Positions 8,306-64,000 of a stretch of DNA of 64,000 nucleotides are shown here, one piece after another. Position 1 is the first letter of the stretch. Every line of letters begins with the position of its first letter. The notes under the pieces are model-generated. The model ran no database searches, was not told the DNA's origin, and saw only the letters and a program-made list of their open reading frames with translations. The stretch is from Candidatus Aminicenantes bacterium. Its GTDB lineage: Bacteria > Acidobacteriota > Aminicenantia > UBA2199. Made by a program: the position numbers and the translations under genes. The stretch covers positions 954 through 64,953 of the forward strand of contig DAOWCY010000012.1 of assembly GCA_030639305.1 (NCBI GenBank), given 5' to 3'.

Positions 8306-8325
8306 ATGCCCCGCAGTGTCCACAC

Positions 8326-8345: not shown

Positions 8346-8366
8346 AACGAAAGATAAAAGGAAAGG

Positions 8367-8383
8367 TGTTGTAAAATGTAACA
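8367..8383. promoter_or_regulatory. Candidate enhancer (UAS) site 2
   Basis: TGTTGTAAAATGTAACA = TGT-N11-ACA inside a GGTGTT..AACACC inverted repeat. Confidence 0.5.
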
Positions 8384-8484
8384 CCCTTTTCGATTTCTCT
8401 CTTTACTTGAAAAATCACTCCCGAAAAATCGAAGCAACGCACTGCTGCTGCTTTCCAGGGTTATCCCGGCGTCTTTTAGTTTAC

Positions 8485-8501
8485 CCGGCAAGAGAATTGC
8501 T
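8485..8501 (+). promoter_or_regulatory. Sigma54 -24/-12 promoter
   Basis: CCGGCAAGAGAATTGCT: GG at 8487-88, exactly 10 nt, then GC at 8499-8500. Confidence 0.7.
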
Positions 8502-8514
8502 AATATAAAGCGAT

Positions 8515-8904: not shown

Positions 8905-10025
8905 GCAATAAAATTTTATTGGTAGACGACGAAAAATTGTTTTTACAGAGCTTAAAACAGGGCCTGGATCATCTTAACGATACGGTGGAAACGGATATTT
9001 GTTTTTCTGTAGCCGAGGCCATCAAACGTTTAAAAAAGGCCGATTATGAGCTAATCATAACCGATATCCGTATGCCCGGCAAATCGGGGATAGACCTGCT
9101 GCTCTATCTAAAGATGAATGATTTTTCCGGCGCTGTCAAAGTGATGTCCGCTTATACCACAGACGATACCCTGAAAAAAATCAATTCCCTGGGCATTCTC
9201 GACGTGATTAGCAAACCTTTCGATTTCGAGTGGTTCGAAGGCATGATCGTCGATTTTTTCAAAAAAAGGAAAGAAACCGCGGTGACTTTCGAATCCATCG
9301 ATTTGTTGAGCGTCATGCAGGTCATCAACTTAGACAAGAATACCTCGGCCTTAGAAATAGAGATCGAAGATAAAAAAGGGATGATATATTTCGAGGATGG
9401 CGAGATGACAGATGCGGAATACCTGGGTTTAAGGGGAAAAGAAGCGGTCTTAAAATTGATTGCCCAACGTAAAGGAAATATATTAGTAAAAAAGATCAAA
9501 AATAAAATCGAAAGAACCATAAATGTGCCCTTCGTCGAATTTATGCTGGACATGATGAAGCAGATAGATGAATACAGGAACGGAGGGGCAGCGGAACCGG
9601 GAACAGCACCCGAAGAAGATGAAATTTTGGTTTTATTAAAAAATAACAACATCGAGGAGGATAATATGATGTATGGTAAAGAAGTCTTGACCGTCCTCAA
9701 ACGGGACGTCGAAGGACTGATGGTCGCTTCGATTTTCGGTAGGGACGGTCTCCCCGTCGTGGTTGAGAACCCGGAAAATCTTGACATCGATGCTTTTTCA
9801 GCCAAGTTCGCCATGGTGAACGCCCTGGTATCGAAAAGTGTGAAAGACCTTTCCGGCGGCAAGGTGTCGGAAATCCTGGTGGAAGAAGAGAATGGCTGGA
9901 TCCTGGTACGGCCTATAACGGGTACGGATATGATGTTGATCGTGGCCGTTTCCTCTAATGCCACTTTAGGCAATGTGCGTTTTGTCGCCAAGAAGCTGGT
10001 GGCCGACCTGGAAAAAATGAGCTAA
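8901..10025 (+). CDS. Receiver - DUF4388 - Roadblock/LC7 (MglB-like) fusion
   Basis: LLVDDE/IITDIRMPG/SKPF receiver; DLLSVMQVINLDK...GMIYFEDGEMTDA DUF4388; VEGLMVASIFGRDGL...ATLGNVRF Roadblock. Confidence 0.85.
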   Translation: MSNKILLVDDEKLFLQSLKQGLDHLNDTVETDICFSVAEAIKRLKKADYELIITDIRMPGKSGIDLLLYLKMNDFSGAVKVMSAYTTDDTLKKINSLGILDVISKPFDFEWFEGMIVDFFKKRKETAVTFESIDLLSVMQVINLDKNTSALEIEIEDKKGMIYFEDGEMTDAEYLGLRGKEAVLKLIAQRKGNILVKKIKNKIERTINVPFVEFMLDMMKQIDEYRNGGAAEPGTAPEEDEILVLLKNNNIEEDNMMYGKEVLTVLKRDVEGLMVASIFGRDGLPVVVENPENLDIDAFSAKFAMVNALVSKSVKDLSGGKVSEILVEEENGWILVRPITGTDMMLIVAVSSNATLGNVRFVAKKLVADLEKMS

Positions 10026-10051
10026 GTTTTTAGAAATTTAGGAGGATTAAC

Positions 10052-10522
10052 ATGGCTACAGAAGAACAAAAAAAGAAACAATTGGTCAGGGTTTTCTCCC
10101 TTATGATCGGGGGCTTGGCCAAAGGTATTTACGATTTATTTGAAGATTCCGCTTATGCATTAATGAAGTCGGTAGGCGAGAATTTATTGGATGTGATGCA
10201 GAAAGAAATGGGACTGGAAATAGAAGGCGAAGACCCCGCCGATATGTTAAACGAACTGCTGCGCATCTGGGTGGATGAAATCGGTTTCATCGAGGAAGCC
10301 AAAGTGGAAGAAACCGAAAACGGTTGGGTCGTAACCGGCAGTGGCTGCAAAGGCTGGAACCTGACGCAAAAATTATTGGCCAGCGGGATTAAAGAACCCT
10401 TTACCTGTCCCATCATGAATTCCATGAACGCGGGCCTCGGTAAAATGGGCGTAAAAACCCATATACACATCGAACCCCTACCGAAAGTCAGGGGTACTAA
10501 GTTTACCCTGACAAAGGCGTAG
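10052..10522 (+). CDS. Hypothetical protein, V4R / small-ligand-binding-like
   Basis: Helical N-terminus, then GC...CPI cysteines and a terminal beta strand; strong AGGAGGA RBS; fold call is by pattern only. Confidence 0.5.
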   Translation: MATEEQKKKQLVRVFSLMIGGLAKGIYDLFEDSAYALMKSVGENLLDVMQKEMGLEIEGEDPADMLNELLRIWVDEIGFIEEAKVEETENGWVVTGSGCKGWNLTQKLLASGIKEPFTCPIMNSMNAGLGKMGVKTHIHIEPLPKVRGTKFTLTKA

Positions 10523-10531
10523 AGAATGCAC

Positions 10532-10598
10532 GTAGGGGTTTGATCCAGCAAACCCGGAGAACCGCGGCGGCGTAAAATTGTGCGTCGCCGCAGTTCTC
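10532..10598. repeat. GTAG-type REP hairpin plus a second GC-rich hairpin inside the operon
   Basis: GTAG-GGGTTTG..CAAACCC; GAGAACCGCGGCGGCG..CGTCGCCGCAGTTCTC. Confidence 0.65.
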
Positions 10599-10625
10599 GG
10601 CGGGTAGTTAACATTTGATTTTAAA

Positions 10626-11951
10626 ATGTACCGGGAAGATAACATGGATGTGAAACGATTAGAAACAGCGGAAGAAATCCTATTCTTTAAAAGAAACGAT
10701 ACCCTGACCCACCAGCAGGACCAGTATTACCAGGACCTTTTTTACCGGGTGCTGAAAATCGGCACCGAATTAGAATTCGCCAGACCGAGAAAAGTAGACG
10801 TCAACGAACTGCGCGGCGATATCATAAAATTAATGAAACCTTCCCGCGACCTGCAAAACTTAGGCGAATTAGGCGTCTTCGATGTGGTGAAAGACCACTG
10901 CGGCGTAGAAGTGCAGGTGATAGGCAGGCATCCTCACTGGAATGCCCTGCTGGACCAGTACTACCGCATCGTCTCCATCCTGCTGGAAAGGAATGTCAGG
11001 ATAAGACCCACCTGCGGTTTGCACTTCCATCTTATTGCCGTGGGCCTGTCCGAATCCATCCCCGATATCATCCTGGCCAACCTGTGGAACCTCTTCCGCC
11101 GTCATGCCCCGGGTTTAAAGTTCATGTTCAGCGGCGGCAGCGACCCCATGGGCATCTGCCGCCGCCGCCAGCACAATCCCCACCAGGAGGTCATGGCCCT
11201 GTCGCCCAACGACTTCCCCATGGCCCAAATCAAAGAAAAACTCACAAACAGCCTGCTGGTGCCGGAACACCAGAATGTGTTTAACCTGGAACATTTGTTT
11301 TTTAACGGTAATGGACACCTGGGCAACTTCCACATCGAAATGCGTTTCCCCGACGGCGACCTGGCCCCCACCTCCATTGTTGCCAAAACCTTCCTCTTCT
11401 TTGCCTTAGTGCTGAAAGCCGTGGAAATATCCAAATACGGCCTGATCCGCACCGGGGCAGAAGCCGACTGGCAGCGCAAAAAACAACTGCTGAACGCCTT
11501 GAGCAATAACGAAGGCAACCTGGCTATGAGCGACACTTCCGGCATCGGCCCAGCCGAAATTAGCGAACTGCAAGATAATGCCTTAGACCTGTTGATTTTT
11601 CTCAAATCCATATTTAATAAGTTCACCAACCCCGCTTATACGGTTCTCAAAAGCCTGGCTCTCAACCCCATCTCTTTGCGGAGAATCGAAAAAGATGATT
11701 GGATCGTCATCGAGAACGACCTGAGCAGCAAAGCCAGGTATCCCCAATTTCTCGATAAAACCGACGCGAATATTATCAAAATCATCGAATTGGGCTTAGA
11801 AAGGAATAAAACCTCGGCAGCGGAATGGCTGGCTCATACGTCAATTAGGATCAATCTCCCCGAACAGGAACTCAAACAAAGAATCGACCGCTATATCGAA
11901 AAGTATCCTATCTGGGACAATGAATCGGGCTCTTTTGCCTTTCTAAGGTAG
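10626..11951 (+). CDS. Putative amidoligase (Amidoligase_2; COOH-NH2 ligase of the glutamine synthetase/gamma-GCS fold)
   Basis: KIGTELEF, GVEVQV, PTCGLHFHL, HIEMRFPD motifs; alternative start 10644. Confidence 0.8.
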   Translation: MYREDNMDVKRLETAEEILFFKRNDTLTHQQDQYYQDLFYRVLKIGTELEFARPRKVDVNELRGDIIKLMKPSRDLQNLGELGVFDVVKDHCGVEVQVIGRHPHWNALLDQYYRIVSILLERNVRIRPTCGLHFHLIAVGLSESIPDIILANLWNLFRRHAPGLKFMFSGGSDPMGICRRRQHNPHQEVMALSPNDFPMAQIKEKLTNSLLVPEHQNVFNLEHLFFNGNGHLGNFHIEMRFPDGDLAPTSIVAKTFLFFALVLKAVEISKYGLIRTGAEADWQRKKQLLNALSNNEGNLAMSDTSGIGPAEISELQDNALDLLIFLKSIFNKFTNPAYTVLKSLALNPISLRRIEKDDWIVIENDLSSKARYPQFLDKTDANIIKIIELGLERNKTSAAEWLAHTSIRINLPEQELKQRIDRYIEKYPIWDNESGSFAFLR

Positions 11952-11959
11952 GCAGCGTC

Positions 11960-12766
11960 ATGTGTGGATTAACCGGCATTCTCATCGGCAAAACCTACTC
12001 GGAAAAGGAACTGCTGCAGGTAAAAGAACTCTTTACCCGCACCCTGCTGGCCCACGAAGAAAGGGGCCGGGAAGCCACCGGGGCAATAGCTCTCCGCCCC
12101 GACGGCAGTTACACCATGATCAAAGAACCGCAGCCGGCCTGCGAGTTCATCGAAACCGGCAAGTACCGGGATTTTCTCGACACCTGGGATAGTAGTGTCT
12201 GCACCATCTTAGGACATACCCGCAAACCCACCAAAGGGAGCCGCTGGAACCCCCTCAACAACCACCCCGTCATCGTAGGGGAGACAGTAGGCATTCATAA
12301 CGGCACCATCAGCAACGACGACTCCATTTTTGAAAAGGAAGAATTCCACCGGAACGGCGAAGTGGACAGCGAAGTGATATTCTCCCTGCTCAACAGTATC
12401 CCCGGGAACAAGAAAAACGACCGCGCCGGGTTCGCAGCGGCAATACAAACCTGCACCGCCAAACTAACCGGTTCATTTACCACTATTTCTCTTAGTTTCA
12501 AAGAACCGCGCAAACTGCTGCTGCTGAAATACAACCAGCCCCTCTCCTACCATTACTCCAAAAACCTGGACACCTTTTTTTTTACCTCCCGCTACATTTT
12601 CCTGCGCAAAGCTTTCGGCCGCTCCGTGGTGACAGAGGCTATGCCCGGCAGGACAGCTTTTATCTTCGACCTCTCCAACGTCTCCCTGCCCCGGGGCGGC
12701 CCCATTTCCCAGTTTTCCATCTCCGCGGCGGAAGAAAAAACCGCCGCCGGCGAGGTGAAAAAATAA
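11960..12766 (+). CDS. Class II (Ntn) glutamine amidotransferase, standalone
   Basis: MCGLTG N-terminal Cys, LGHTR, NHP, HNGTI, DSEVI. Confidence 0.9.
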   Translation: MCGLTGILIGKTYSEKELLQVKELFTRTLLAHEERGREATGAIALRPDGSYTMIKEPQPACEFIETGKYRDFLDTWDSSVCTILGHTRKPTKGSRWNPLNNHPVIVGETVGIHNGTISNDDSIFEKEEFHRNGEVDSEVIFSLLNSIPGNKKNDRAGFAAAIQTCTAKLTGSFTTISLSFKEPRKLLLLKYNQPLSYHYSKNLDTFFFTSRYIFLRKAFGRSVVTEAMPGRTAFIFDLSNVSLPRGGPISQFSISAAEEKTAAGEVKK

Positions 12767-12795
12767 GGAAAACCATTACAAATAGGAGGTTTGAT

Positions 12796-13833
12796 ATGGA
12801 ATTATCGAAAGAAGAGCAAAAGAAAGAAGAAAACCACCCACTAAGCATTTATAACATTTGCGGAAAAATCGATCTCGGTATTTTAATACTGGATTCTAAA
12901 AAAAAGGAAATTATTTTTTCAAACCACTATTATAAAAAACTGGCCGGCGATTCCCAGCGGTTGATATTGGATAATATTTTTAAATGTTTGCAGTCGAAAA
13001 ATATCCGTATGCACCGGGAAGTCGATATCCCCGGTGTTTTAATCGGTTACTCGGTCTATCGAGCAGCGCCGGAAGAATATTTAATTTTAATGAGCGACAT
13101 TTCCAACCGCAAGATTTTTTTAGAAACCAGGGAGGAAAACCTCTACTATTCCAAATTAGCGAACTTTATGGCGGAAATATCCCATGAAATCGGCAACCCG
13201 CTCACCTCTGTTATCACTACTCTCCAGGTGCTTTTGAAGAATATCCCGGCCTGGAACAGCGAACAAAAAGGAGACTATATCAACCAATCCATCGATGAAC
13301 TTAAGCGCTTATCGAAGTTTCTAAGCAAAGTACGCCATCTCTCCGAAGAAGATAAAATCGAAAAAAAGAAAATCTTTTTGGAACCGGTGTTAGAACGGCT
13401 TTATTTGCAAAACAGGGCTTTGTTGGCAGCCGGCAGCGTATCCTTTACTTATGATATAGATAAAAAAATTGCCGTGGTGGCTGACGAAGACGCTCTATAC
13501 CGGGTGTTTTTTAATCTTTTGCAAAATTCCTTAGACAGCCTGCCGGGCACGGGCACAGAGGCGATGATTTCCGTACACATCGAAAAAGCGGACGATTTTT
13601 TTGTCAAGCTGGTTTATGAAAACAACGGCCCCCCCATCTCTTATGATAAGTTAGAGAAAATATTTTTGCCTTTTGTCACTACCAGGGAAGCAGGCAGGGG
13701 CATGGGTTTGAATATTTCGCGAAAATTGATGACCCGCATGGGCGGCGCCATTAAAGCGGAAATGCCCGCCGGGGAAGGCAGCCTCGGAGTTAGGTTTGTC
13801 TTATATATCCCTATACAGGAGGAGGGTTCATGA
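12796..13833 (+). CDS. Cytoplasmic histidine kinase with degenerate PAS-like N-terminus
   Basis: EISHEIGNPL, NLLQNS, FLPFVTT, GRGMGL; atypical G1 box ENNGPP. Confidence 0.9.
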   Translation: MELSKEEQKKEENHPLSIYNICGKIDLGILILDSKKKEIIFSNHYYKKLAGDSQRLILDNIFKCLQSKNIRMHREVDIPGVLIGYSVYRAAPEEYLILMSDISNRKIFLETREENLYYSKLANFMAEISHEIGNPLTSVITTLQVLLKNIPAWNSEQKGDYINQSIDELKRLSKFLSKVRHLSEEDKIEKKKIFLEPVLERLYLQNRALLAAGSVSFTYDIDKKIAVVADEDALYRVFFNLLQNSLDSLPGTGTEAMISVHIEKADDFFVKLVYENNGPPISYDKLEKIFLPFVTTREAGRGMGLNISRKLMTRMGGAIKAEMPAGEGSLGVRFVLYIPIQEEGS

Positions 13834-14102
13834 AAGGGCAGTCGGTCGAGGGGCCGCAGCCGATAAAAGAGGAAGAAATGATTTCTTCGCCATCGAAAAA
13901 TCTCCACAGGGAAGAAAGGTTTTGCCTCGTGGCTCATGAGTTGATCGATATTTTCACTATTATCTGCGGGTATAGCGAATTATCCCTGGAAACGCTAACC
14001 GAAGGCACAAAAGAGAAGAAGAATTTGAAAAAGGTCCTGGCCGCGGCGGACCGTGGCATAGAGATGATCGGGAATTATTTTAGCGCATCCGAACGTTGTT
14101 AA
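13830..14102 (+). CDS. Standalone HisKA-like (phosphoacceptor/dimerisation) mini-protein
   Basis: VAHELIDIFTIICGYSELSLE...LKKVLAAADRG resembles an H-box helix pair; no ATPase domain; ATGA overlap with the kinase. Confidence 0.6.
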   Translation: MKGQSVEGPQPIKEEEMISSPSKNLHREERFCLVAHELIDIFTIICGYSELSLETLTEGTKEKKNLKKVLAAADRGIEMIGNYFSASERC

Positions 14103-14120
14103 TATGAGTGCCTTCTAATT

Positions 14121-14246
14121 CAAAAAATGCTGCAAAACAAGACTTGACCCCGATAGTTTTTTAAAAATGTTGCAAAACAAGACTTGACCCCGTTAATTTT
14201 TTAACATTCCTCAAAAATGTTGCAAAACAAGACTTGACCCCGTTAA
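14121..14246 (+). repeat. Repeat family A, three near-tandem copies
   Basis: GACTTGACCC at 14141, 14181 and 14231. Confidence 0.95.
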
Positions 14247-14354
14247 TTTTACCGCCTATGTTAAAAAAAATGAAGCCTCATGAAGAGTGGCTTCCAGACT
14301 GGATGTTGGAGATGGCGGCATGAAAAAAAATGGGGTGACGACAGTTAAAAATCC

Positions 14355-14383
14355 TTGACTCTTTTTCCTGGCAGTGCTATAAT
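14355..14383 (+). promoter_or_regulatory. Strong sigma70 promoter with extended -10
   Basis: TTGACT-N17-TATAAT preceded by TGC. Confidence 0.75.
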
Positions 14384-14447
14384 GAGTTCGTTAAACATAA
14401 AAAATTATACCTTTATTATTTGTTAATAAAATAGTTAAGGAAAGGAT

Positions 14448-15377
14448 GTGAATTTGAACCGTAGAAATTATGAACTTATAACTACAGCAGTACTCCTTGC
14501 AGCCGGTACGGGGAGTCGCCTGTATCCTTTGACGAAGAACATGCCTAAATGTCTTACAATGGTTAACGGGACGTCCATACTTGAACGACTTGTCATCTGT
14601 TTGAATCAGCAAGGCTTCAAGCGCCTTGTTGTGGTCACAGGGTACCTGGAAAATAGTATTCGGGAGTATCTAAAAACGCGGGCTGGCGGTATGACAATCG
14701 ATTATATTTTCAGTCCGCTTTATAAGACGACCAATAACATATATTCACTATGGATGGCCCGTGAAATTATTAATGAGCCGTTTTTGTTGGTCGAAAGCGA
14801 TCTTGTTTTTGACGAATCCCTGTTGGATGACATGCGTGATCCTGACAGAATTGCCATTGCAAGCATGGAGGCGTGGATGAACGGTTCCACCGTAACAGTC
14901 AATCAATCTCAACAGGTTAAGAGATTCCAAATCGGTATTACCGGGCCTTTGGATGAGATCAGGTACAAGACTGTTAATATTTACAGTTTTTCGCTCTCTT
15001 CATGGCATGCTATTGTAGAAAGACTTGACGAGTACATTTCAGACGGCAGAGTAAACTGCTATTATGAAACCGTATTTGAGGAAATGGTGGCTGACGGCAG
15101 CCTCTGTCTTCAAACAGTCTCTTTTGATGCTAACCCCTGGTATGAAATAGACACAATTGCGGATCTGGAAGAAGCTGAGAGACTATTTCCAGCAGATAAA
15201 CTTGAAACAATAATTCCTTACTCGGAAACGGAAACGGTTACTCGTTCACTTCCCGGTTTAAGAGCATCCCCTCAGTCCAATTTTTTATTTATGAAGCCGA
15301 TTCATGATCCTAATATTAAAGAAAATAAAGTATCACCAAAAGAAAAATCAAAAAGAAGTGGATATGGCGCATTATAA
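14448..15377 (+). CDS. Phosphocholine/phosphoethanolamine cytidylyltransferase family (LicC-like NTP transferase)
   Basis: LAAGTGSRLYPLTKNMPKCL, YKTTNNIYSLW, LVESDLVF, WYEIDTIADL; GTG start. Confidence 0.85.
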   Translation: MNLNRRNYELITTAVLLAAGTGSRLYPLTKNMPKCLTMVNGTSILERLVICLNQQGFKRLVVVTGYLENSIREYLKTRAGGMTIDYIFSPLYKTTNNIYSLWMAREIINEPFLLVESDLVFDESLLDDMRDPDRIAIASMEAWMNGSTVTVNQSQQVKRFQIGITGPLDEIRYKTVNIYSFSLSSWHAIVERLDEYISDGRVNCYYETVFEEMVADGSLCLQTVSFDANPWYEIDTIADLEEAERLFPADKLETIIPYSETETVTRSLPGLRASPQSNFLFMKPIHDPNIKENKVSPKEKSKRSGYGAL

Positions 15378-16485
15378 TTATAAGACTCAAACGGAAAAAT
15401 ACGAATTCATCTCCGGGCAGCATGGTGGTTACTATCGTCATGGTTTTATAGACCATGCTTATCTTTATAATCTCTATTTCCCTCCGGAGGCGATTTTTAC
15501 AAGATTTAAAAATCAAATCCATGACATTGTCCTGAACTACCCGGTTGCACAGGATGCTCTTGCCGCTCTTATCGGTAATCTAATCCATCAACCTGCTGAA
15601 AGAATAGTTGTAGGAAACGGCGCTTCCGAACTCATCAAAATATTATGCGGTCACATATCCGGCAAGTTAATCGTTCCGGTGCCTTCTTTTAATGAATATG
15701 CGAATGCAGCGGCGATAGGCCGGGTCGTTGAATTTCCTCTTGAATTTCCATCCTTCCATCTTGATGTGGATAAGTTCGCTGCCGAAGCGATCAGGGTTGA
15801 AGCTGATGTGGCTGTTGTGGTAACGCCTAATAATCCAACATCTATGCTGGTCCCCAGGTCCGCCCTAATATGTCTTGCACAAAAACTTGCAAATCATGAC
15901 TGTATGCTGATCGTCGATGAATCCTTCATGGATTTTGTGCAAAACCCGGAGCAGACAACCCTGGAACATGAAATCGAACGTTACCCCAATATGGCAATCT
16001 TTAAAAGCATGAGCAAAGCCTATGGTATCTGCGGTCTCAGGATCGGCTATATGCTTACAGCAAATTCAGCATTTGCCGAAACTGTACGAAAAGGCGTGCA
16101 TATCTGGAATATTAACGGATTTGCCGAAGAGTTTTTGCGGCTTTTGCCCGGTTACAGACAGGAGTTTGCCGAAAGCTGTAAACAGGTACTGATCGATAGG
16201 GACAATCTGTATGAAAACCTGTGCTCTGTCCAGGGGATGACCGTTTACAAACCCGATGCAAACTTTGTTTTCTGCCGCCTTCCCGATTATGCACAAAGTG
16301 CCCCTGAAGTAACGCGGCGATTGTTTATTGAGCATAACATGTATATAAAACACTGCCGAGACAAAACTCTCCCGGATTCCGATCGTTATATTCGTATTGC
16401 CAGCCGTACCGAAACAGAGAATTGCAATTTAGTTGAAGCATTGACAAATATCATTGACTTGAAAAAAGTGGAAATAAAAAAATAA
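15364..16485 (+). CDS. PLP-dependent class I/II enzyme (CobD/HisC-like; possible phospho-amino-acid decarboxylase)
   Basis: GNGASELI, TPNNPT, VDESFMDF, KSMSKAYGICGLRIGY. Confidence 0.85.
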   Translation: MAHYNYKTQTEKYEFISGQHGGYYRHGFIDHAYLYNLYFPPEAIFTRFKNQIHDIVLNYPVAQDALAALIGNLIHQPAERIVVGNGASELIKILCGHISGKLIVPVPSFNEYANAAAIGRVVEFPLEFPSFHLDVDKFAAEAIRVEADVAVVVTPNNPTSMLVPRSALICLAQKLANHDCMLIVDESFMDFVQNPEQTTLEHEIERYPNMAIFKSMSKAYGICGLRIGYMLTANSAFAETVRKGVHIWNINGFAEEFLRLLPGYRQEFAESCKQVLIDRDNLYENLCSVQGMTVYKPDANFVFCRLPDYAQSAPEVTRRLFIEHNMYIKHCRDKTLPDSDRYIRIASRTETENCNLVEALTNIIDLKKVEIKK

Positions 16486-55892: not shown

Positions 55893-56109
55893 AGCGGTCT
55901 TCAGCGGCATTGTAATAAATAGAAAAAATCTCCCTGTTCCGGCACAAAACCCGGAAATAGTGAATTCTTTCGCGGTTTTGGGTAGACTCTTCGACCCGGC
56001 GTTCCAGTACTTTTTCTACGTGGTATTCTTTGTCCCGGTAACGAAAACTCAGGGGCGTCTCGTTTGCCCGGTATCCCGAATAGCAGGTTACTTCGATCTC
56101 TTGTGTCAT
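55714..56109 (-). CDS. Small conserved hypothetical protein (about 73 aa core) read through into repeat B
   Basis: YSGYRANETPLSF...YNAAEDRW, followed by a repeat-encoded tail. Confidence 0.65.
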   Translation of the reverse strand: MTQEIEVTCYSGYRANETPLSFRYRDKEYHVEKVLERRVEESTQNRERIHYFRVLCRNREIFSIYYNAAEDRWGGVQCTQPMSLRRPHTRGVAVSRCAEGPCRGPNFCKSLIKTFDNFRSENQKHHLLRSS

Positions 56110-56211
56110 GAAATTAACTTTATCTTGCCTCCGGCGGTGGGGGGGCTTTTTTAAAAAATCGCCCCCCTCAACCCCCCAAAAAACTTTTGTTTAATTTCAT
56201 GTGTTTGTGGA

Positions 56212-56517
56212 TCAAGGCAGGTCAAGGTCTTTAGTGATTTCGATATAATTTGCCCAGGGCATGGCCGGCCAGGTCTCCACCGCCAGGGCGCCCGAAGCCC
56301 GGGTAATCATGGAAACCTTTGCCGCCGTCTCATCGCCTGCGGCCTCATAAATATCCATAAAATCATAAGGTCCTAAGAGCCAATAGTGGCTTTTCCATTT
56401 TACATCGGGGCAGAGTTTGCTTACTTTTTTCTTCCACTCTTTGCCGATGGCTTCGCGTCTTTTAAGGTCTCCCGAAATTTCCGGGGTCAATCTTGTCATT
56501 AATACGTATAGTCCCAT
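56212..56517 (-). CDS. GYD-domain protein
   Basis: YWLLGPYDFMDIYEA...ETWPA; GAGG RBS; TTGAAA-N17-TATTAT promoter. Confidence 0.9.
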   Translation of the reverse strand: MGLYVLMTRLTPEISGDLKRREAIGKEWKKKVSKLCPDVKWKSHYWLLGPYDFMDIYEAAGDETAAKVSMITRASGALAVETWPAMPWANYIEITKDLDLP

Positions 56518-56563
56518 ATTTTACCTCGCTGTTTATATAATAGCCTAATTTGCAAAATTTTTC

Positions 56564-56692
56564 AACCCCGCGGCGCGGGGAACCTATAAGGGGCTATTTT
56601 CCGGGACGCGGCAGCCGAGTAGTTTCCATTATCGTCTATCCGGTTGGGAAAGCCGGTCGCTTGTAAGCCACAACCCCGCGGCGCGGGGAGCC
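56564..56692 (+). repeat. Two copies of palindrome CAACCCCGCGGCGCGGGG
   Basis: At about 56564 and 56671. Confidence 0.7.
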
Positions 56693-56840
56693 CAGGAGTG
56701 CGTCATTATCTTTAAACTTTCCTGGATTAATGCGGTTTTTGGGAGATTTGACAGAAATCCCGAAACCCTTGTTAATTCAGCGTTTTAACAAAATAATGAT
56801 GCGGCCCTGAGCGAAAACATCCTGATTTGGAAAAATCAGC

Positions 56841-57248
56841 CTATCCACTCCAATTTTCAATTTTTAGGTTCTCAATTCTTTTAAAATGCCTTTCATTGTT
56901 AGTAACCGATGTAAATTCATTAGAAATCGCTGTAGCCGCAATGAAAAGGTCTGAATCAGAAATAATTTGTTCTTTTGTCTTCAAGGCTGATTTTATTTCA
57001 CCAAAAGTCTTCCCGGTATTTTCATTAAAATCAACCACATTCGCCTCTTTTAGCAAATCGTTGATAAGTGATATATTTTCATCTTTTCGTGCGGAATTAT
57101 AAGCCCCAAAATAAAGTTCCGCGGCGGTGATGGAAGATAAAAAAATACGCTCATCATTAATTTTTTCAATTTTCTGATTAATTTTAGGGAATATATTTTT
57201 TAACCAATAGATAACGATGTCTGTGTCTAAATGATTATTTTTTTTCAT
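56841..57248 (-). CDS. vapC: VapC/PIN toxin
   Basis: LDTDIVI, SSITAAELYFG, DSDLFIAATA, VTNNERHF. Confidence 0.93.
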   Translation of the reverse strand: MKKNNHLDTDIVIYWLKNIFPKINQKIEKINDERIFLSSITAAELYFGAYNSARKDENISLINDLLKEANVVDFNENTGKTFGEIKSALKTKEQIISDSDLFIAATAISNEFTSVTNNERHFKRIENLKIENWSG

Positions 57249-57250
57249 TT

Positions 57251-57511
57251 TTAAAGGCAGACTTTTTCAGAGCGGACGTTTTTCTCTCTATCTGCCCTAA
57301 TTTCAGCGATAATCTCATCTGCATCACGCTCATCTTGCCATTTGCCGCAAAACCGGCTCAGGTGGTGTAGTCGAGGCTCATCAGTTAGGATAATGATCCT
57401 CCTTTTAGTAGGTTTTTTTTTCGATCTGGTTTTTATCTGTTTTATAACCTCCGGAGGCAATACAAGGTGCCCATCCGGCAGCAGTTCAGCTTCACAAGTA
57501 ATGGTTTTCAA
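57251..57511 (-). CDS. Cognate antitoxin of the VapC toxin
   Basis: Directly upstream of vapC; ends WQDERDADEIIAEIRADR. Confidence 0.75.
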   Translation of the reverse strand: MKTITCEAELLPDGHLVLPPEVIKQIKTRSKKKPTKRRIIILTDEPRLHHLSRFCGKWQDERDADEIIAEIRADREKNVRSEKVCL

Positions 57512-57745: not shown

Positions 57746-58204
57746 TTGAGACAAATGAATTTATTTTATGAATTTTTTAAAATCATCGAGCAGTTTGAAA
57801 AAATAGGATTACAATATGCTGTAGTCGGAGGTATCGCTATGGCATTTCACGATCAACCCAGGTTCACAAGAGACATAGATATTCTCGTGCTGCCGGAGGA
57901 CCTGGAAAAGATATGCAGTGTATTTGAGGATATAGGGTATTTTGAATCATCTGCTCCATGGACTTTTAAAAATACAAAGTTGACGCTGCATAGATTTATG
58001 AAAGTTGAAGGTAAGGATTTCCTGGTTGTAGATATTTTGATCGGTAACGAGGTAAAACATAGAGAGATAGTAAAAAATGCATTGTCTGAAATTCATGAGA
58101 AGGGGGTCGTTAAAATTGCCGCCAAGAACGACTTGATATGGATGAAAAAAATAAGGAATTCAGATCAAGATAAAGTTGACATTAAGAGGTTAGCAAATGA
58201 CTAG
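57746..58204 (+). CDS. Nucleotidyltransferase-family protein
   Basis: YAVVGGIAMAFH..PRFTRDIDIL...DLIWMK...DKVD; TTGACA-N17-TATATT upstream. Confidence 0.85.
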   Translation: MRQMNLFYEFFKIIEQFEKIGLQYAVVGGIAMAFHDQPRFTRDIDILVLPEDLEKICSVFEDIGYFESSAPWTFKNTKLTLHRFMKVEGKDFLVVDILIGNEVKHREIVKNALSEIHEKGVVKIAAKNDLIWMKKIRNSDQDKVDIKRLAND

Positions 58205-58331
58205 AATCGAGAAAGTCGTCAAAGATGTAAGCGATATGTTGGAATTTTATAAAAAAATAAAAAAAACCGGGAAGAAGGAAAAGAAACCTATCACCAAAGT
58301 AGGAAAACAACCGGCAGGGCAAAAATTTTAG
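58197..58331 (+). CDS. Small basic ORF (44 aa) coupled to the nucleotidyltransferase
   Basis: MTRIEKVVKDVSDMLEFYKKIKK...; overlaps the upstream stop; below the ORF-track cut-off. Confidence 0.45.
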   Translation: MTRIEKVVKDVSDMLEFYKKIKKTGKKEKKPITKVGKQPAGQKF

Positions 58332-58656
58332 CCGGTCATGAAATTAGCCACAGAGAACACCGAGGGCACAGAGCGGATGGCATCCGCAACCAAACACACC
58401 CCGTCGCTTCGTGAAAAAACAAGATTTTTCCCGATGAGTAGTACAGAAGGGGGCTTCTCACAGAAGAGAATCGGTACGGTTCCTGCCGCGAAGCGGCTAA
58501 TAGGGTGGGGACGGCGTCCCCCCGCGAAGCGGCTAAACGCACCCCCACACATGTGGGGCCACGAAGGCCGCGAAGTACACGAAGGGGGTAAAAACTTTTC
58601 TTGCCTGTCCCCAGTTTTTCCCTAAAATCATTGAAATGCATTTGCGCATTCCGGTT

Positions 58657-58872
58657 GTTCATGTGAACATTTTGATTTTGCACGTGCACATTTTCATTTT
58701 ACACATGAACATTCTCGAAGTGGACGTGAACATTCTCGATGTGTATATGAACGTTCTCAAGGTGCAGGTGAATATTTCCGATGTGCATCTACTTTTTTGA
58801 TTTGTTCACGTGTATTTTCGATTTATGCGCGTACTATTTGAAATTGTGCTGGTGAACACTGCCGATGTGCAC
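58657..58872. repeat. Degenerate 21-bp tandem repeat (about 10 units)
   Basis: GTGAACATT-like core recurring every 21 nt. Confidence 0.8.
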
Positions 58873-59083
58873 TTATTTTTTGGGGTATGACATTATTTGT
58901 CGTATCCTCTTTGCTATACTGTTATATGTATAAAAATAAATTGCTTCTTTTTTGCTTGTTTCAATTTGTTTTATGTATAGGAGGAAGTTGGCTTTGTAAG
59001 CACAACCTCCGTTTTTGGAGCCGTCTTACATTTAATACGGACAAACTTGATAGTGTTATTGTAAGATATATTTCAGTAAAATG

Positions 59084-59112
59084 TTGACATATAATCTGTT
59101 TTTTGTTAAAAT
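59084..59112 (+). promoter_or_regulatory. Candidate sigma70 promoter of the E2-E1-JAB operon
   Basis: TTGACA-N17-TAAAAT. Confidence 0.6.
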
Positions 59113-59249: not shown

Positions 59250-59963
59250 ATGAATGTTTTGAAAATTTTTAATGAATATGAGATAAAAGCGAGATACTTT
59301 CCTGCTATGTTGATTTCTATTCCTTTCTTGCTGAGTTTCGGTATGTTAAAAGGGACTGCATGGGTTCCCCTGATCGAGTCCACAAAAATTTTTCCGATAG
59401 CAGAATATGCAGGTTTTTCAGTCATTTTAGTTTTCTTTTTAGTTCAGGTGCAACGATTCATTGCAAAATTTTTTTTAGAGAAAAGAATTTTTGATAAAGA
59501 AGAACTGTTTCCTACTACTCAAATGCTTCTCTGGCAAGACAATAGATTATCAAAAGAAATGAAAGTGAAGATTAGAAAGAAAATTTTCGATGATTTCGAT
59601 ATATCTCTGTATAGCGAAAAAAAGGAGAGTAAGAATTTGAAAGAAGCAAGGCGATTAATAAAGGATATTATCCCTCTTATTAGACAGAAAATTGAAAAAG
59701 GACGACTTGTTCATCAGCATAACATTCAGTATGGATTTGCTCGAAACTTACTCGCTGGTACTTTAATAGCTATACCTGTTTCTCTGTTCAATATCTATCT
59801 TTCGTTGAAATCAAATGCAACGTTTGGCTTAATAATTTCAATAATAATTGTCGTTTTCTGTTTTGTTTTTTTTCTGGCGAGAAAACCAATTCTTAAAAAC
59901 CTTGCAGAAAACTACGCAGAATTTTTGTTGCGTGAATATTGTTATATAGGAGGTAAAAAATGA
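59250..59963 (+). CDS. Membrane protein (2+2 TM flanking a soluble helical core), candidate effector
   Basis: ARYFPA...PTTQML...NIQYGFARNL; ATGA coupling to the next gene. Confidence 0.75.
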   Translation: MNVLKIFNEYEIKARYFPAMLISIPFLLSFGMLKGTAWVPLIESTKIFPIAEYAGFSVILVFFLVQVQRFIAKFFLEKRIFDKEELFPTTQMLLWQDNRLSKEMKVKIRKKIFDDFDISLYSEKKESKNLKEARRLIKDIIPLIRQKIEKGRLVHQHNIQYGFARNLLAGTLIAIPVSLFNIYLSLKSNATFGLIISIIIVVFCFVFFLARKPILKNLAENYAEFLLREYCYIGGKK

Positions 59964-61132
59964 GTACATCAAAAATAATATTCTATCCGGTCAATAATGG
60001 TGCTATGGCTCTCTTGAAGCTAAATGATGATAAAGAGACAACAATAATGGTTGATATGAATATCCGTGAGGCAGCAGACGATGATGATGAGGATGAATAC
60101 GATGTGGCAAATCATCTTAGAAGTCAATTAAAAGAGGATGATTATGGTCGTCCCTATTTAGATGCTTTTGTTTTGTCACACAATGATGACGATCACATTA
60201 AAGGAATTCAGAATCACTTCCATTTGGGCAGTCTTGATGGCTATAAGGAACCGGAAGAGGGTGAAAAACCGAAAATTATTATCAATGAGATTTGGGCTAC
60301 TTCGAGATTTTGGAAACGGGCAAGTGATAGCAATAAGCTTTGTGATGATGCAAAAGCATTCAACCGGGAAATGAAAAGAAGGGTAAAAATTTTTGAAAAT
60401 ACAAAAAAAATACCAAATGCAAGTGATAGAGCATTGATTATCGGAGAAGACCCGGATGGCAAAACAGATGATCTAGATGATATTGTAATGGAAGTCGGAA
60501 GTTCATTTTCCGAAGTTAACCGACAGAATCTTTCAAAGAAAATACAAATAAAGATTTTAGGCCCACTATCTCAACAAAAAAATGAAGCTGATGAAGATTT
60601 CAATAAAAAAAATAGAGGCAGCGTAATCCTCCTTATTAAAATCAAAGAAAGTGGTTATGAAAATAAATTATTACTTCCAGGCGATGCGGAAGTTTTAGTT
60701 TGGGAATGTCTATGGGGAAAATATAAGAACAACATATCTAATCTTGAGTATGATATTCTATTAGCGCCTCACCATTGTTCATGGCATTCACTCTCATATG
60801 ATAGTCAGAGCCAATGCGATAATCCCGAAGTTTCCGAAGATGCAGAATCCGCACTAAGCCAGGCTAAAGAAGGAGCATATATTATTTCCAGCAGCAAACC
60901 AATCAAAAATAATGATGATGACCCCCCTTCATTTGCCGCGAAAAAGGAGTATTTAGTTATTGTTAAAAAAAAGCACTTCCTCTGCACTGAAGAATATCCA
61001 AAAGAAGGTGATGTCGAACCGATTGTATTGAAGCTTACTTCATTTGGCCCACAACTAAAAGGACAAAAGTCCAAATCAAGAATATCGCAGGCATCATCTG
61101 GCCCTGTTGGACAGGCGTTTGGACATGGTTGA
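59960..61132 (+). CDS. ComEC/Rec2-like metallo-beta-lactamase-fold hydrolase with C-terminal Gly
   Basis: MVDMN, LSHNDDDHIKG, PGDAE, APHHCS; tail ...SSGPVGQAFGHG*. Confidence 0.88.
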   Translation: MSTSKIIFYPVNNGAMALLKLNDDKETTIMVDMNIREAADDDDEDEYDVANHLRSQLKEDDYGRPYLDAFVLSHNDDDHIKGIQNHFHLGSLDGYKEPEEGEKPKIIINEIWATSRFWKRASDSNKLCDDAKAFNREMKRRVKIFENTKKIPNASDRALIIGEDPDGKTDDLDDIVMEVGSSFSEVNRQNLSKKIQIKILGPLSQQKNEADEDFNKKNRGSVILLIKIKESGYENKLLLPGDAEVLVWECLWGKYKNNISNLEYDILLAPHHCSWHSLSYDSQSQCDNPEVSEDAESALSQAKEGAYIISSSKPIKNNDDDPPSFAAKKEYLVIVKKKHFLCTEEYPKEGDVEPIVLKLTSFGPQLKGQKSKSRISQASSGPVGQAFGHG

Positions 61133-63200
61133 TGTTCCATATTGGATTTTTCTGGCAAATAGGTATGCGAATGAACATCCAGCTATTTTATCCGTTTCTG
61201 AAATTAAACATTTAGGGGACGAACACTACACCTTTACTGCTGAATTCAGGGTAAATCTCCCCGGTAAGTTTGATATTATAGGTCAAACGGAGAGAGGGGT
61301 TCGAAAAAAAGAACCAGTCAAATTTATTTTCCCCCCCTCTTTTCCCTATAAAGCACCTTTTATATATTTGAGAGATGACTTTTGTCGCAACTTTGCTCAC
61401 ATTAATCCATCTAAGGAAAAAGTTACCCCCTGTATTTTCTATGGGAATCTCAATGAGTTGTTACAGCAGCCGAAATGGTTTGATCATATATTGGATCAGA
61501 TGGCTGATTGGTTGGAAAAAGCAGCAGGAAATAATTTGATTGACTATAAACAGGGTTGGGAACCGATGAGGTCAGATGAATTAAAGGGAGAAATATTTTA
61601 TGATAAGGGTCTAATAGATAAAGAATCTGAAGCTCCCCCAGTTTTCTATAATAACTTCCCTGTATTTGCCTATGTCTTTCCGGTTCATTCCAAACTAAAA
61701 GAATTCGATAGTAATAAACATTCAACAATCTTAATTTTTAAGATGCCTATTGATAAAATATCTGATAATTATATTCCCAACTACATCAGTAAATTTAGCG
61801 ATTTATGTGAATTTGCCGAGCAAAACCATATCAATCATTTTAGAGACAGAGTGAACAGGGTGATAAAAAAACTAAAAAAATTGTTTGTTATTTTAGTGAT
61901 TCGACGACCTTCTCGGCTGATTAATTCGTCGTCTTGCCTGGAGGCTTTAAATTTTGGCATTAGAATAAAGAGGAATAGTAAAACTTCTAAGATTAAATCA
62001 AATTCAGAAGTCTACTTTTTATCTCATAGAGACGTTTGTAATCTGGAACTTTTAAATCGATTTTCCGGTAATCTAAAGAAACAACGATTTGATTGGATAT
62101 TTCAAATAGGATGTGGGAGTTTGGGATCGAAAATTTGTGTGCATTTAGCCCGAAACGGTAATAACAATTTTGTGGCTGTCGATAAGTCTAAGTTTTCTCC
62201 ACATAACAACGCCAGACATTCTCTTATCAATCGTGATATCAGAAATATAAACAAAGCATTTCTGTTAAAACATGAAATTGATAAAATGGGAATAAATGTA
62301 CGGAGATGCTCAAAGGATGTTCAATTCTTGGATTTTAGCAAATTCCCTCAATCTATTATTATCGACTCAACTGCAAATCTTGCTGTTAGAAACTATTTAT
62401 CGAGAAAGAGTATTCCATACCCAATTGTTCATACTTCACTTTACAATCATGGTAAACTTGCTATCTTGCTCGCAGAATCGTCTGAACGTAACCCAAGGCT
62501 TGATGACTTAATAGTATTCATTTTTTCAGAATGCTTGAGAAATAAATGTTTAAGGGAAAGTCTGCTGACTGAACAAGCCGTAAGAATGAGCACCGGTCAA
62601 GGTTGTGGTTCATTTACCACTGTTGTCCCCGATTCAAGAATATCTCTCGCAGCAGCCGGAATGTCAGCGAAGATTCAAACCTATATCAGCAGTGGAGTTC
62701 CAGAAAACGGGGAAGTGTTATATGGTGTTGTTGGTGACGATGATATGGGAATAAGATGGAATAAAATTAAGAATGGTAAAGTATTAGTGGTTGAACCCAA
62801 AGATAGTGAGTATGAAATCAGAGTGTTTCCAAAAATCGCTGAAATAATGGATAGCGAAGCCAAAAAACACTCTCCCAATGAAACCGGCGGAGTTTTAGTT
62901 GGCCATATTTCTTTGATAAATAAATGTATTACAATATCTGATTTAATACTAGCCCCAGAGGATAGCATAGAAACTCCAAACTATTTTGAATTAGGAACCA
63001 GTAATTTACTGAATAAAATAAAAGAGATAGAAAAAAAATCAAATACTCTGCTTACGTACCTGGGGACATGGCATAGTCACCCTCACGGAGGCGATGCGTC
63101 TAATTTAGATAAAGAAACAAAAAAGAAGATCAAAGAATTAAGGAATTATATGCCGACAGTTTGTCTGATTTGGACACAAAATGGATTATTGAGTGTATAG
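61125..63200 (+). CDS. Prokaryotic E2 - E1 (ThiF) - JAB triple fusion (Cap2/Cap3-like)
   Basis: E2: FPPSFPYKAP...HINP...TPC; E1: IGCGSLGS, VDK..FSPHNNARH, GQGCGS; JAB: ETGGVLVG, GTWHSHP...SNLD; 8-nt overlap with the MBL gene. Confidence 0.92.
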   Translation: MVDVPYWIFLANRYANEHPAILSVSEIKHLGDEHYTFTAEFRVNLPGKFDIIGQTERGVRKKEPVKFIFPPSFPYKAPFIYLRDDFCRNFAHINPSKEKVTPCIFYGNLNELLQQPKWFDHILDQMADWLEKAAGNNLIDYKQGWEPMRSDELKGEIFYDKGLIDKESEAPPVFYNNFPVFAYVFPVHSKLKEFDSNKHSTILIFKMPIDKISDNYIPNYISKFSDLCEFAEQNHINHFRDRVNRVIKKLKKLFVILVIRRPSRLINSSSCLEALNFGIRIKRNSKTSKIKSNSEVYFLSHRDVCNLELLNRFSGNLKKQRFDWIFQIGCGSLGSKICVHLARNGNNNFVAVDKSKFSPHNNARHSLINRDIRNINKAFLLKHEIDKMGINVRRCSKDVQFLDFSKFPQSIIIDSTANLAVRNYLSRKSIPYPIVHTSLYNHGKLAILLAESSERNPRLDDLIVFIFSECLRNKCLRESLLTEQAVRMSTGQGCGSFTTVVPDSRISLAAAGMSAKIQTYISSGVPENGEVLYGVVGDDDMGIRWNKIKNGKVLVVEPKDSEYEIRVFPKIAEIMDSEAKKHSPNETGGVLVGHISLINKCITISDLILAPEDSIETPNYFELGTSNLLNKIKEIEKKSNTLLTYLGTWHSHPHGGDASNLDKETKKKIKELRNYMPTVCLIWTQNGLLSV

Positions 63201-63366
63201 GGTGGCGTAGATAACAGAGTTGAGAGAAATTGCTTTGAAATTTGGATTTTCCTTAAAATGTTTCGGGTACGGCGGCCCATTTTTATCTATATTGTATATA
63301 ATTATATCACTAAAGAATATGTACACAGAATACTTGACACTACCTATAAAAATCGGGGACAACACT

Positions 63367-63512
63367 CGATCTTCGGAGCATCAAAATCGGTCTTCTGAGC
63401 ATCGACGAAGGGCTTCTGATCAACGACAATCTTCCGACCATCGTCGTCGATCTTCCAACCATCAGCACCGATCTTAAAACCTTCAAACACGATCTTCTGA
63501 GCATCGACAACA
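63367..63512. repeat. Degenerate 21-bp tandem repeat (7 units, one of 18 bp)
   Basis: GATCTTC-like core at 63368, 63389, 63410, 63428, 63449, 63470 and 63491. Confidence 0.8.
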
Positions 63513-63885
63513 GGAAAAGAGGGACGGTGGAAGGAAAAGAAGAAGTGTTGGGGGCTCGGGGGCAATGGGGGGAGGTAAATCTCGAAATTCGACTCCGGCT
63601 GGGGCAGCAATCTTCGAAAGATTTGAGATTTGGGAACGGTGTATGTAAGTGTGTAAATGGTTCATCGGGTAGTGCCGGAAAGGGGACAGGCCAGGAACGT
63701 TTTTTTCATTTGTTTGTAATGTGGGATTTGTAATTTGTTATTTCCCGGCAAGCCGGGCTCTTTTTGGTTCCGGCTTGACCGGGTTGTGGGGCCGGTTTTT
63801 TTTATTCGCTATTGTTGGCAGGATTATTTTTTTATGTATAATATTAATGGGCTACAATGTGGCCACACAAAGCAGGAGGTGAACT

Positions 63886-64000
63886 ATGGCCGACAGTATA
63901 GTTCGTTCCAGGATCGATCCTGTAGTTAAGGACGAAGCGAACCGGATTCTGAAAAGTATGGGACTGACTTTAAGTGAAGGGATAAGACTTTTTTTACACC
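63886..64000 (+). CDS. dinJ: RelB/DinJ antitoxin, truncated by the window edge
   Basis: CAGGAGG RBS; MADSIVRSRIDPVVKDEANRILKSMGLTLSEGIRLFL. Confidence 0.88.
   Translation, partial: MADSIVRSRIDPVVKDEANRILKSMGLTLSEGIRLFLH

Follow-up and report, generated by a model that had tools for sequence, protein, structure and literature searches.

Among the described phage defense systems, the closest to the operon that we analyze here is 6A-MBL, which van den Berg et al. reportedly introduced under that name and tested in 2024 (Cell Host Microbe 32:1427), according to papers that cite that study. Our operon lies in a 64,000-nucleotide stretch of DNA from a cold-seep metagenome (Candidatus Aminicenantes bacterium, assembly GCA_030639305.1, contig DAOWCY010000012.1, positions 954 to 64,953), which we will call the window. 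Its three genes encode a predicted membrane protein with four transmembrane helices (the 4-TM protein), a protein with the metallo-beta-lactamase (MBL) fold, and a single-chain fusion of E2, E1, and JAB domains (cap2_3, or Cap2/3). Judging by its sequence, the operon is a three-gene form of 6A-MBL, not a new kind of system. What we could not find described is the family of the membrane protein, and the idea that 6A-MBL is a ligase-regulated form of a cassette that combines a membrane protein with an MBL.

This type of operon was defined by Iyer, Burroughs and Aravind in 2006 as operon type 6a, "usually two genes" (PMC1779556). Later papers treat 6A-MBL as a validated phage defense and credit van den Berg et al. 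2024, and one preprint lists it among the known defenses against jumbo phages (10.1101/2025.09.30.679545). What these papers say concerns homologs from Pseudomonas. A preprint from the Corbett laboratory groups "MBL pathways" with type II CBASS (cyclic oligonucleotide-based antiphage signaling system) and Pycsar: in each of these pathways, an E2-E1 fusion attaches the enzyme of its own system to unknown targets, and the conjugated proteins are termed "signaling enzymes" (PMC11601596).

Like 6A-MBL, the window's operon has an MBL followed by a single-chain E2-E1-JAB protein, it has no cyclase or ubiquitin-like protein (Ubl), and the tail of its MBL ends in glycine. The two core genes are adjacent and overlapping, in the same orientation, with the MBL first, and both proteins pass the cut-offs of their equivalog models. 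The operon adds a conserved 4-TM protein that has no model, as do about 45% of the related loci that we surveyed.

The E2-E1 and JAB parts are homologous to those of type II CBASS (a CD-NTase, the E1-E2 protein Cap2, the JAB protein Cap3, and an effector) and of type II Pycsar. The logic is alike too: each of those systems ligates its own enzyme through a flexible C-terminal Gly or Ala, and the JAB protein undoes the ligation. But our operon has no nucleotide cyclase and no nucleotide-sensing effector domain. Also, its E2-E1 and JAB domains are fused in one chain, and the conjugated enzyme would be an MBL-fold hydrolase. The Bil and Bub ubiquitination systems use E1, E2, and JAB-type chemistry in phage defense as well, but in those systems, E1 and E2 are two proteins and a beta-grasp Ubl is encoded by a gene of its own; none of these is found in or beside our operon.

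By sequence, the window's MBL belongs to the same ComEC-like clade as the MBL nucleases of Hachiman, AVAST type 1, Lamassu, and the defense-associated reverse transcriptase (DRT) systems, which are latent DNase effectors. For instance, the Hachiman MBL (HamM) was shown experimentally to be a latent DNase, and related nuclease-protease pairs are found in AVAST, Lamassu, and DRT systems (PMC12799240; 10.1101/2025.09.03.673762). Those MBLs are switched on by a fused trypsin-like protease that cuts inhibitory loops. The operon encodes no trypsin domain, and control would instead be exerted via the C-terminal tail and a ubiquitin-type ligase and isopeptidase. PADLOC's candidate system PDC-M48 is a two-gene cassette of a membrane protein (M48A) and an MBL (M48B), like the first two genes of the operon, but the operon's membrane family does not match M48A, its MBL matches M48B only partially, and the operon adds Cap2/3 and a His-Gly (HG) tail. 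Finally, the competence protein ComEC shares the MBL fold with our MBL, but its Competence membrane domain is not matched by our membrane protein.

The core of the operon is 6A-MBL

We know of two NCBIfam models that carry the 6A-MBL name, and the operon matches both. The fusion protein matches the equivalog NF058523 with E = 5.1e-145 (484.6 bits; the cut-off is 320). The MBL matches the equivalog NF058524 with E = 8.8e-114 (380.2 bits; the cut-off is 220), and its residues 8-363 cover the whole profile. This MBL family is large, with over 2,900 matches in a word-indexed search. The order of MBL and then Cap2/3, with overlapping genes, is common to about 70 related loci from many phyla. An earlier reading of the window, which was made from the letters and the open reading frames (ORFs) and which we will call the sequence-only reading, had implied that the pairing of MBL and E2-E1-JAB was novel. 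This did not hold up: the pair has been known as operon type 6a since 2006, it has a name, and both NCBIfam cut-offs are passed widely. That reading had also proposed that the operon was likely to be anti-phage. Given its membership in the 6A-MBL family and the literature on that family, the operon is very probably anti-phage.

In Pfam, the fusion protein matches Prok-E2_A (residues 44-165, 2.4e-22), ThiF (331-437, 5.7e-07), and Prok-JAB (583-663, 1.8e-07), in this order along a single chain. The catalytic motifs lie exactly where the sequence-only reading had placed them. TGT at 61431 encodes Cys109 of the E2 domain, GCGSLG begins at residue 335 (62109), TGT at 62604 encodes Cys500 of the E1 domain, and the HSH of the JAB domain is at residues 656-658 (63072). 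From 80 genome loci, we took 69 relatives of the window's protein and aligned them with it. Across these 70 sequences, His98 and Cys109 of the E2 domain are 100% conserved; G335xGxxG340, D359, R370, K383, and Cys500 of the E1 domain are 99% conserved; and the JAMM residues E592, H656xH658, S665, and D668 are 97-99% conserved. The window's protein has all of these residues.

The fusion protein is also similar to PADLOC's models for CBASS (down to 8.4e-21 for E1-E2 and down to 6e-21 for JAB). Its match to NF050170 (Cap3) is below the cut-off for that model (3.6e-06). A sequence search of the PDB identified only MccB (for the E1 domain) and a JAB peptidase at E of about 3e-3. No relative of the fusion protein was found in phage records.

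The sequence-only reading described an operon of the Cap2/Cap3 lineage without a cyclase or a Ubl. We found no cyclase match for any ORF at 58.2-64 kb of the window (using Pfam, PADLOC, and NCBIfam), and there is no cyclase gene among the recurrent neighbor clusters of the 70 related loci. Nor is there a beta-grasp Ubl gene within the operon or beside it: the ten small flanking ORFs (58.3-63.9 kb) have no Pfam match at E ≤ 0.1. So, the description stands.

The MBL is probably a ComEC-like latent DNase

The MBL has the metal-site motifs H74-x-D-x-D78-H79, D242, and H271-H272. In an alignment of 27 diverse MBLs from the family, H74, D78, H79, D242, H271, and H272 are invariant, and so are the terminal His389 and Gly390 (27/27). 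Among the structures in the PDB, the best fold match is 9ic4, which is ComEC's beta-lactamase-like nuclease domain (E = 1.3e-11; TM-score 0.72, normalized by the target). By sequence, the similarity to ComEC is faint (E = 0.092 for TIGR00361), and a sequence search of the PDB gave no match for the MBL. Among PADLOC's models for MBLs, there were matches to RTasMBL from DRT (2.3e-14), the LmuA-type MBL of Lamassu (9.6e-13), and Avs1a (6.8e-05). Matches to PDC-M48B were partial (4.7e-09, residues 4-89). Because of the fold match to ComEC, the matches to the MBLs of DRT, Lamassu, and Avs1, and the latent DNases of the related Hachiman systems, we think that the MBL is probably a ComEC-like latent DNase.

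The similarity to ComEC raises another explanation, which is that the operon is not for defense at all. It could be a split ComEC-like device for the uptake or processing of DNA, with a channel and a nuclease, or else a decaying remnant. The best structural match of the MBL and the origin of the locus from an uncultured cold-seep organism are both compatible with this. But the membrane protein has no match to the Competence domain, to any other Pfam domain, or to a known fold, and the catalytic motifs and all three reading frames are intact. The family's neighbors also speak for defense. WYL-domain (CapW-like) regulators are found at 19 related loci, and pairs or fusions of a helix-turn-helix (HTH) protein and an M78 peptidase (the CapH/CapP type) are found at related loci as well. 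Members of the family occur in toxin-antitoxin islets, in defense islets, and on plasmids. Together with the listing of 6A-MBL as a validated phage defense in the publications that we cite, this makes a role outside of defense extremely improbable. The window's own operon contains no gene for a WYL protein, an HTH or M78-peptidase protein, a second MBL, or a Tle1-like lipase. Around it, however, are small genes of the toxin-antitoxin type (Table 1).

The MBL's tail is the most probable substrate of the ligase

The C-terminus of the MBL reads ...GQAFGHG. In an AlphaFold2 (AF2) model of the protein, the confidence score (pLDDT) is 85.4 overall but about 35 for residues 371-390, so this tail is predicted to be disordered. 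We also examined 82 MBLs of the family from genomes: in 50, HG is the very end of the sequence, and in another 10, HG is followed by 1-6 residues. The strongest sequence evidence that the tail is a substrate for the ligase is its association with Cap2/3. Among the MBLs that adjoin the membrane family, the sequence ends in [H/A]-G plus 0-2 residues in 11/11 cases in which Cap2/3 follows and in 0/42 cases in which it does not. Given the disordered tail, the invariant HG, and the restriction of this type of tail to MBLs that are followed by Cap2/3, the MBL is the most probable conjugated protein, as the sequence-only reading had suspected.

Other types of tails are found in the family. In one clade of 6A-type MBLs, from Pseudomonas, Frateuria, and Stenotrophomonas, the proteins end in PRAG plus 0-4 residues, and Cap2/3 is divergent. 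In another clade, the proteins end in GG.YA or GFA, and most members have no recognizable match to Cap2/3 downstream. (Both clades are from the genome loci L021-L085.) Also, the ligase-free MBLs that are upstream of a membrane gene share a different conserved C-terminus, which is acidic (..P.PF[YH].QVE[EDA]; these loci are listed in Table 1). This hints at some other tail-based interaction in the ligase-free cassettes.

The membrane protein belongs to an uncatalogued family

In the protein that is encoded by the first gene of the operon, there are four long helices, all hydrophobic, and the central domain is basic. The AF2 model is very confident (pLDDT 91.4, pTM 0.86) and all-alpha, with the four long helices and a helical central domain. 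The central domain (residues 71-151) contains 21 lysines or arginines, so by the positive-inside rule, this domain, both termini, and all of the conserved motifs are expected to be cytoplasmic. The conserved motifs in the family's alignment are Y10, A14-R15, P18, P25, P88-T-T, K105, E126, N158-x-x-Y-G-F-x-R-N166, and Y222-A.

We could not find this family described in Pfam, NCBIfam, PADLOC, PHROGs, or the literature that we searched. Neither the window's protein nor its relatives match any model from those four databases (including the Competence domain of ComEC in Pfam), and the source annotations are "hypothetical protein". The M48A models of PDC-M48 gave no match at E ≤ 0.01 for the window's protein or 29 of its relatives. 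There was no significant fold match in the PDB either (best E = 0.34, TM-score ≤ 0.26). Matches to bestrophin, ExbB, and TolQ (E > 0.3, TM-score < 0.27) were not used as evidence.

The family is large. With a threshold of E ≤ 1e-3, an exhaustive profile search found 3,560 representative clusters (at 50% identity), of which 2,903 had E ≤ 1e-10; the 150 best matches that were listed are all about 230-310 amino acids (aa). A search with the single sequence found just four relatives. Three of these have the same three-gene arrangement or are on contigs whose length does not allow the arrangement to be judged. The fourth, which is 27% identical, is encoded in a defense island before a different MBL, beside a Mokosh-like helicase and a phospholipase D (PLD) family nuclease. 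In IMG/VR, 12 contigs encode relatives of the membrane protein, most of them distant, and 2 of the 12 also encode an MBL and Cap2/3.

At three loci (L003 at 8001-15734, and also L004 and L005), a distant relative of the membrane protein precedes a PDC-M48B-type MBL (3.4e-28) and there is no Cap2/3. This cassette is directly upstream of genes for a Mokosh MkoA-like helicase of 1224 aa, a 416-aa protein, and a PLD nuclease. The locus L003 is a defense island with GmrSD and integrases.

The membrane family partners with the MBL

Using a profile that was built from the neighbors of the 80 genome loci with 6A-MBL, we found the membrane family at 36 of those same 80 loci. The membrane gene occupies one of three positions: immediately upstream of the MBL, which is its place in the window; immediately downstream of Cap2/3; or upstream in a divergent orientation. 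A second family of neighbors, of about 222 aa and from 6 loci, is a full-length homolog of the membrane family (hhalign probability 94.5%, E = 8e-8). We also considered cluster c2, which comprises membrane proteins of about 215 aa that are encoded directly after Cap2/3 at 12 or more loci and that have no match in Pfam or NCBIfam. A relationship to the window's membrane family could not be demonstrated (hhalign probability 6.5%).

To test the linkage from the other direction, we used the membrane family's profile to fetch 92 loci from metagenomes and viral contigs, of which 43 have at least 1.2 kb of sequence on both sides. At 39 of the 43, the membrane gene is linked to an MBL or to Cap2/3. 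It adjoins a co-directional MBL at 32 loci, and 23 of those loci have no Cap2/3. At the remaining loci, Cap2/3 abuts the membrane gene (4), Cap2/3 is nearby (3), or neither is present (4). Because 32 of 43 adjoin an MBL, and 23 of those lack Cap2/3, these linkages indicate that the partner of the membrane family is the MBL and not the ligase. Furthermore, at several loci, the membrane gene is paired with a second, M48B-like MBL, beside an HG-tailed MBL and Cap2/3. This suggests that the membrane protein and an MBL form a unit to which the ligase module was added. In other words, 6A-MBL looks like a ligase-regulated version of a simpler pair of a membrane protein and an MBL.

The membrane protein might itself be the target of conjugation: Gly390 of the MBL could be ligated to one of its lysines, such as K105, which would tether the nuclease covalently to the membrane. 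K105 is invariant and lies in the putative cytoplasmic domain, the genes are translationally coupled, and the literature that we cite has yet to name a target for the 6A-MBL ligase. But K105 and the other motifs are equally conserved where the partner MBL has no Cap2/3 (at L003 and at many metagenome loci), so conjugation does not explain the conservation of K105. Also, about half of the 6A-MBL loci lack the membrane family. We therefore consider this explanation to be very unlikely.

A more serious alternative is that the system works like CBASS. The HG-tailed MBL would be an upstream sensing or signaling enzyme, in the slot of the CD-NTase, and would be primed by Cap2/3. The 4-TM protein would be the killing effector: on a trigger from the MBL, which could act directly or via a small product of its hydrolysis, it would oligomerize to form a pore or channel. 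The layout does parallel that of type II CBASS, where an enzyme is combined with Cap2/Cap3 and, in many cases, with a membrane effector. From one 6A-MBL locus to the next, the MBL and Cap2/3 stay the same and the third slot varies among membrane clusters (c0, c7, and c2), Tle1-like lipases, and second MBLs, as expected for exchangeable effectors. The term "signaling enzymes" for the conjugated proteins (PMC11601596) fits as well, and the top fold matches of the membrane protein, although not significant, are oligomeric channel or stator proteins (bestrophin, ExbB/TolQ, PomA). On the other hand, many 6A-MBL loci have only the two core genes, so the core itself must have some capacity to kill. 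The MBL's relatives by sequence are demonstrated terminal DNases. The membrane protein has no recognizable ligand-sensor domain, and its best fold match has E = 0.34. Its conserved residues are expected to be on the cytoplasmic face rather than along the membrane helices, which fits docking better than the lining of a pore. On balance, we view a CBASS-like arrangement as unlikely, but as deserving of consideration. The sequence-only reading had suggested that the membrane protein was either an effector or a target. The effector role survives as this alternative, and the role of target is the least likely of those that it offered.

Two other kinds of genes recur next to 6A-MBL. Tle1-like phospholipases (PF09994) with membrane helices are found at L033 (3494-4984), L050, L058, L073, and L078. 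Genes for Hailong HalB nucleotidyltransferases adjoin the 6A-MBL genes at four loci.

A proposed mechanism

We propose that the operon is a three-gene 6A-MBL system in which the MBL is a latent nuclease that is controlled by ligation of its tail, and in which the membrane protein is a partner that docks and controls the MBL. We think that this explanation as a whole is probably correct. It builds on the family membership, the intact catalytic motifs, the features of the MBL's tail, and the linkage of the genes, all of which we observed.

Specifically, the MBL would be a ComEC-like, metal-dependent nuclease that is kept latent. By analogy to type II CBASS, the E1 domain of the fusion protein would adenylate the Gly390 end of the MBL, which would form a thioester with Cys500 of the E1 domain and then with Cys109 of the E2 domain. 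The MBL would then be ligated to a lysine of a target, just as Cap2 ligates the CD-NTase in type II CBASS. We predict that ligation primes or relocates the nuclease during infection. The JAB domain would remove the conjugate, which would keep the system off in uninfected cells, and it probably also trims the 1-6 extra residues after the Gly in some members of the family. The 4-TM protein would be a dedicated partner of the MBL that is not conjugated; it would dock and control the nuclease at the inner membrane, as a sensor or a regulator. The outcome would be the degradation of phage DNA, host DNA, or both, so that defense might be abortive or direct. Since many loci have just the two core genes, which offer no other candidate for the effector, the MBL must be capable of serving as one.

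The mechanism sketched in the sequence-only reading was largely right, and it was the novelty of the system that was overrated.

Several considerations weigh against our proposal. That the MBL is conjugated, to which target, and on which substrate it acts are all matters of inference. The nuclease activity is deduced from the fold and from relatives, and the MBL fold also occurs in enzymes that cleave RNA, nucleotides, or lipid head groups. The association between the type of tail and Cap2/3 has p = 1.3e-11 (Fisher's exact test), but this statistic ignores the shared ancestry of the loci. The least certain step is the role of the membrane protein in docking and control. The membrane family is missing from about half of the 6A-MBL loci and therefore is not essential to the core. 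And at other 6A-MBL loci, the third slot is filled by Tle1-like lipases or second MBLs, which are typical effectors; this would suit a system that works like CBASS, with the membrane protein as the effector.

Layout and surroundings of the operon

The features of the operon and of its surroundings are listed in Table 1. The sequence-only reading described three translationally coupled, AT-rich genes behind one promoter, and the overlapping ORFs, the base composition, and the near-consensus promoter-like site all bear this out. The first two genes overlap by 4 bp (ATGA), and both are preceded by a Shine-Dalgarno-like GGAGG. For gene 3, the longest possible ORF starts with TTG at 61107, but the in-frame ATG at 61125 is a likelier start. 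The end of gene 2, including the stop codon, overlaps gene 3 by 8 bp when counted from this ATG (ATGGTTGA). All three reading frames are intact. The GC content is 0.31-0.39 across the operon, as compared to about 0.45-0.54 at 50-56 kb of the window. The promoter-like site is about 140 nucleotides before gene 1. Overall, promoter-like sites are no more numerous in this region than in shuffled sequences, so we call this promoter from the quality of a single site, that is, its match to the consensus. No Rfam family was identified at 56-64 kb, and a look for RNA sequencing runs yielded none.

Table 1. Features of the operon, its surroundings, and two groups of related loci. Positions are in the window unless stated otherwise.
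Feature	Position	Strand	Details
Gene 1, 4-TM membrane protein, 237 aa	59250-59963	+	ORF list
Gene 2, MBL-fold protein (6A-MBL enzyme), 390 aa	59960-61132	+	ORF list, NF058524
Gene 3, E2-E1-JAB fusion (cap2_3), 697 aa from TTG	61107-63200	+	ORF list, NF058523
Promoter-like site, TTGACA-17 nt-TAAAAT, extended TG	59084-59112	+	11/12 matches to the consensus
Codons for the C-terminal tail of gene 2, residues 371-390, ...SSGPVGQAFGHG	61070-61129	+	Predicted substrate end for adenylation by E1
Gene 3, E2 domain	about residues 44-165		H98, C109
Gene 3, E1 adenylation domain	about residues 331-500		GxGxxG 335-340, D359, R370, K383, C500
Gene 3, JAB/JAMM isopeptidase domain	about residues 563-688		E592, H656-S-H658, S665, D668
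PIN (VapC) gene with 86-aa upstream partner (VapBC pair)	56841-57511	-	Upstream of the operon
Nucleotidyltransferase fragment, 152 aa (AbiEii/NTP_transf_5-like)	57746-58204	+	Upstream of the operon
ORF that reads like a RelB/DinJ-type antitoxin (by eye)	63887-64000	+	Downstream of the operon, behind a TTGGCA-16-TATAAT site
Cluster c2 membrane proteins	L014-L017, L035, L046, L058, L061, L073, L080, L178 (6274-6912)		Other loci, directly after Cap2/3
Acidic MBL C-terminus, no Cap2/3	L089, L096, L103, L112, L136, L159, L166, L168, and others		Other loci, from metagenomes

Two arrays of repeats with a 21-bp period, which have different units, bracket the operon (58656-58881 and 63367-63508). Outside of the arrays is a pair of 23-nucleotide inverted repeats (58590-58612 and 63682-63704) that are complementary at 20/23 positions. 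This repeat occurs nowhere else in the window, and 0.01 such pairs would be expected by chance. One possibility is that the pair delimits a mobile cassette that is non-autonomous; another is that a dispersed repeat happens to be present twice. In contigs from four cold-seep metagenome runs, we saw no junction that would correspond to an empty site. When we summed the depth of contigs from cold-seep runs, it was about 5-25 times that of the flanks at 56000-56266, 56534-56800, 58136-58669, and 63209-63475, which implies that these stretches contain repeat elements in multiple copies. Among them are the GC-rich palindromic units CAACCCCGCGGCGCGGGGAACC (at 56563 and 56671) and CCGCGAAGCGGCTAA (at 58481 and 58517). 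Because the left repeat lies within one of the high-copy stretches, the pair may be two copies of a dispersed repeat.

Implications for 6A-MBL and related defenses

The core of this system was already known, so no new kind of immunity emerges from the locus. What it adds is, first, the sequence evidence that the MBL itself is the substrate of the 6A-MBL ligase: a disordered tail that ends in Gly is found exactly where Cap2/3 follows the MBL. Second, there is a family of membrane proteins, with about 3,500 clusters, that has no database model or structural relative and that is nearly always wired to ComEC-like MBLs, with or without the ligase.

These observations raise a broader idea, which we offer tentatively and consider to be possible rather than probable. 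The 4-TM protein, with its YGFxRN motif, and a ComEC-like MBL might form a widespread and unrecognized two-component immune module, in which the membrane protein senses or gates at the inner membrane and the MBL executes. The membrane protein would then be a new kind of membrane-embedded licensing factor or sensor, with a fold that has not been seen in the PDB. 6A-MBL would be the "type II" elaboration of this module: the MBL would have gained a tail that ends in Gly, along with Cap2/3, much as type II CBASS builds on type I. Our counts of linkages and the association of the tail with Cap2/3 are a partial test of the picture of 6A-MBL as a ligase-regulated cassette.

The window's version of the system is compact, with three genes in about 4 kb, one putative promoter, and no separate regulator, which would make it a convenient construct for work on the mechanism. 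And the membrane family may provide a handle on how nuclease-like effectors are controlled, and on the trigger and the target of 6A-MBL.

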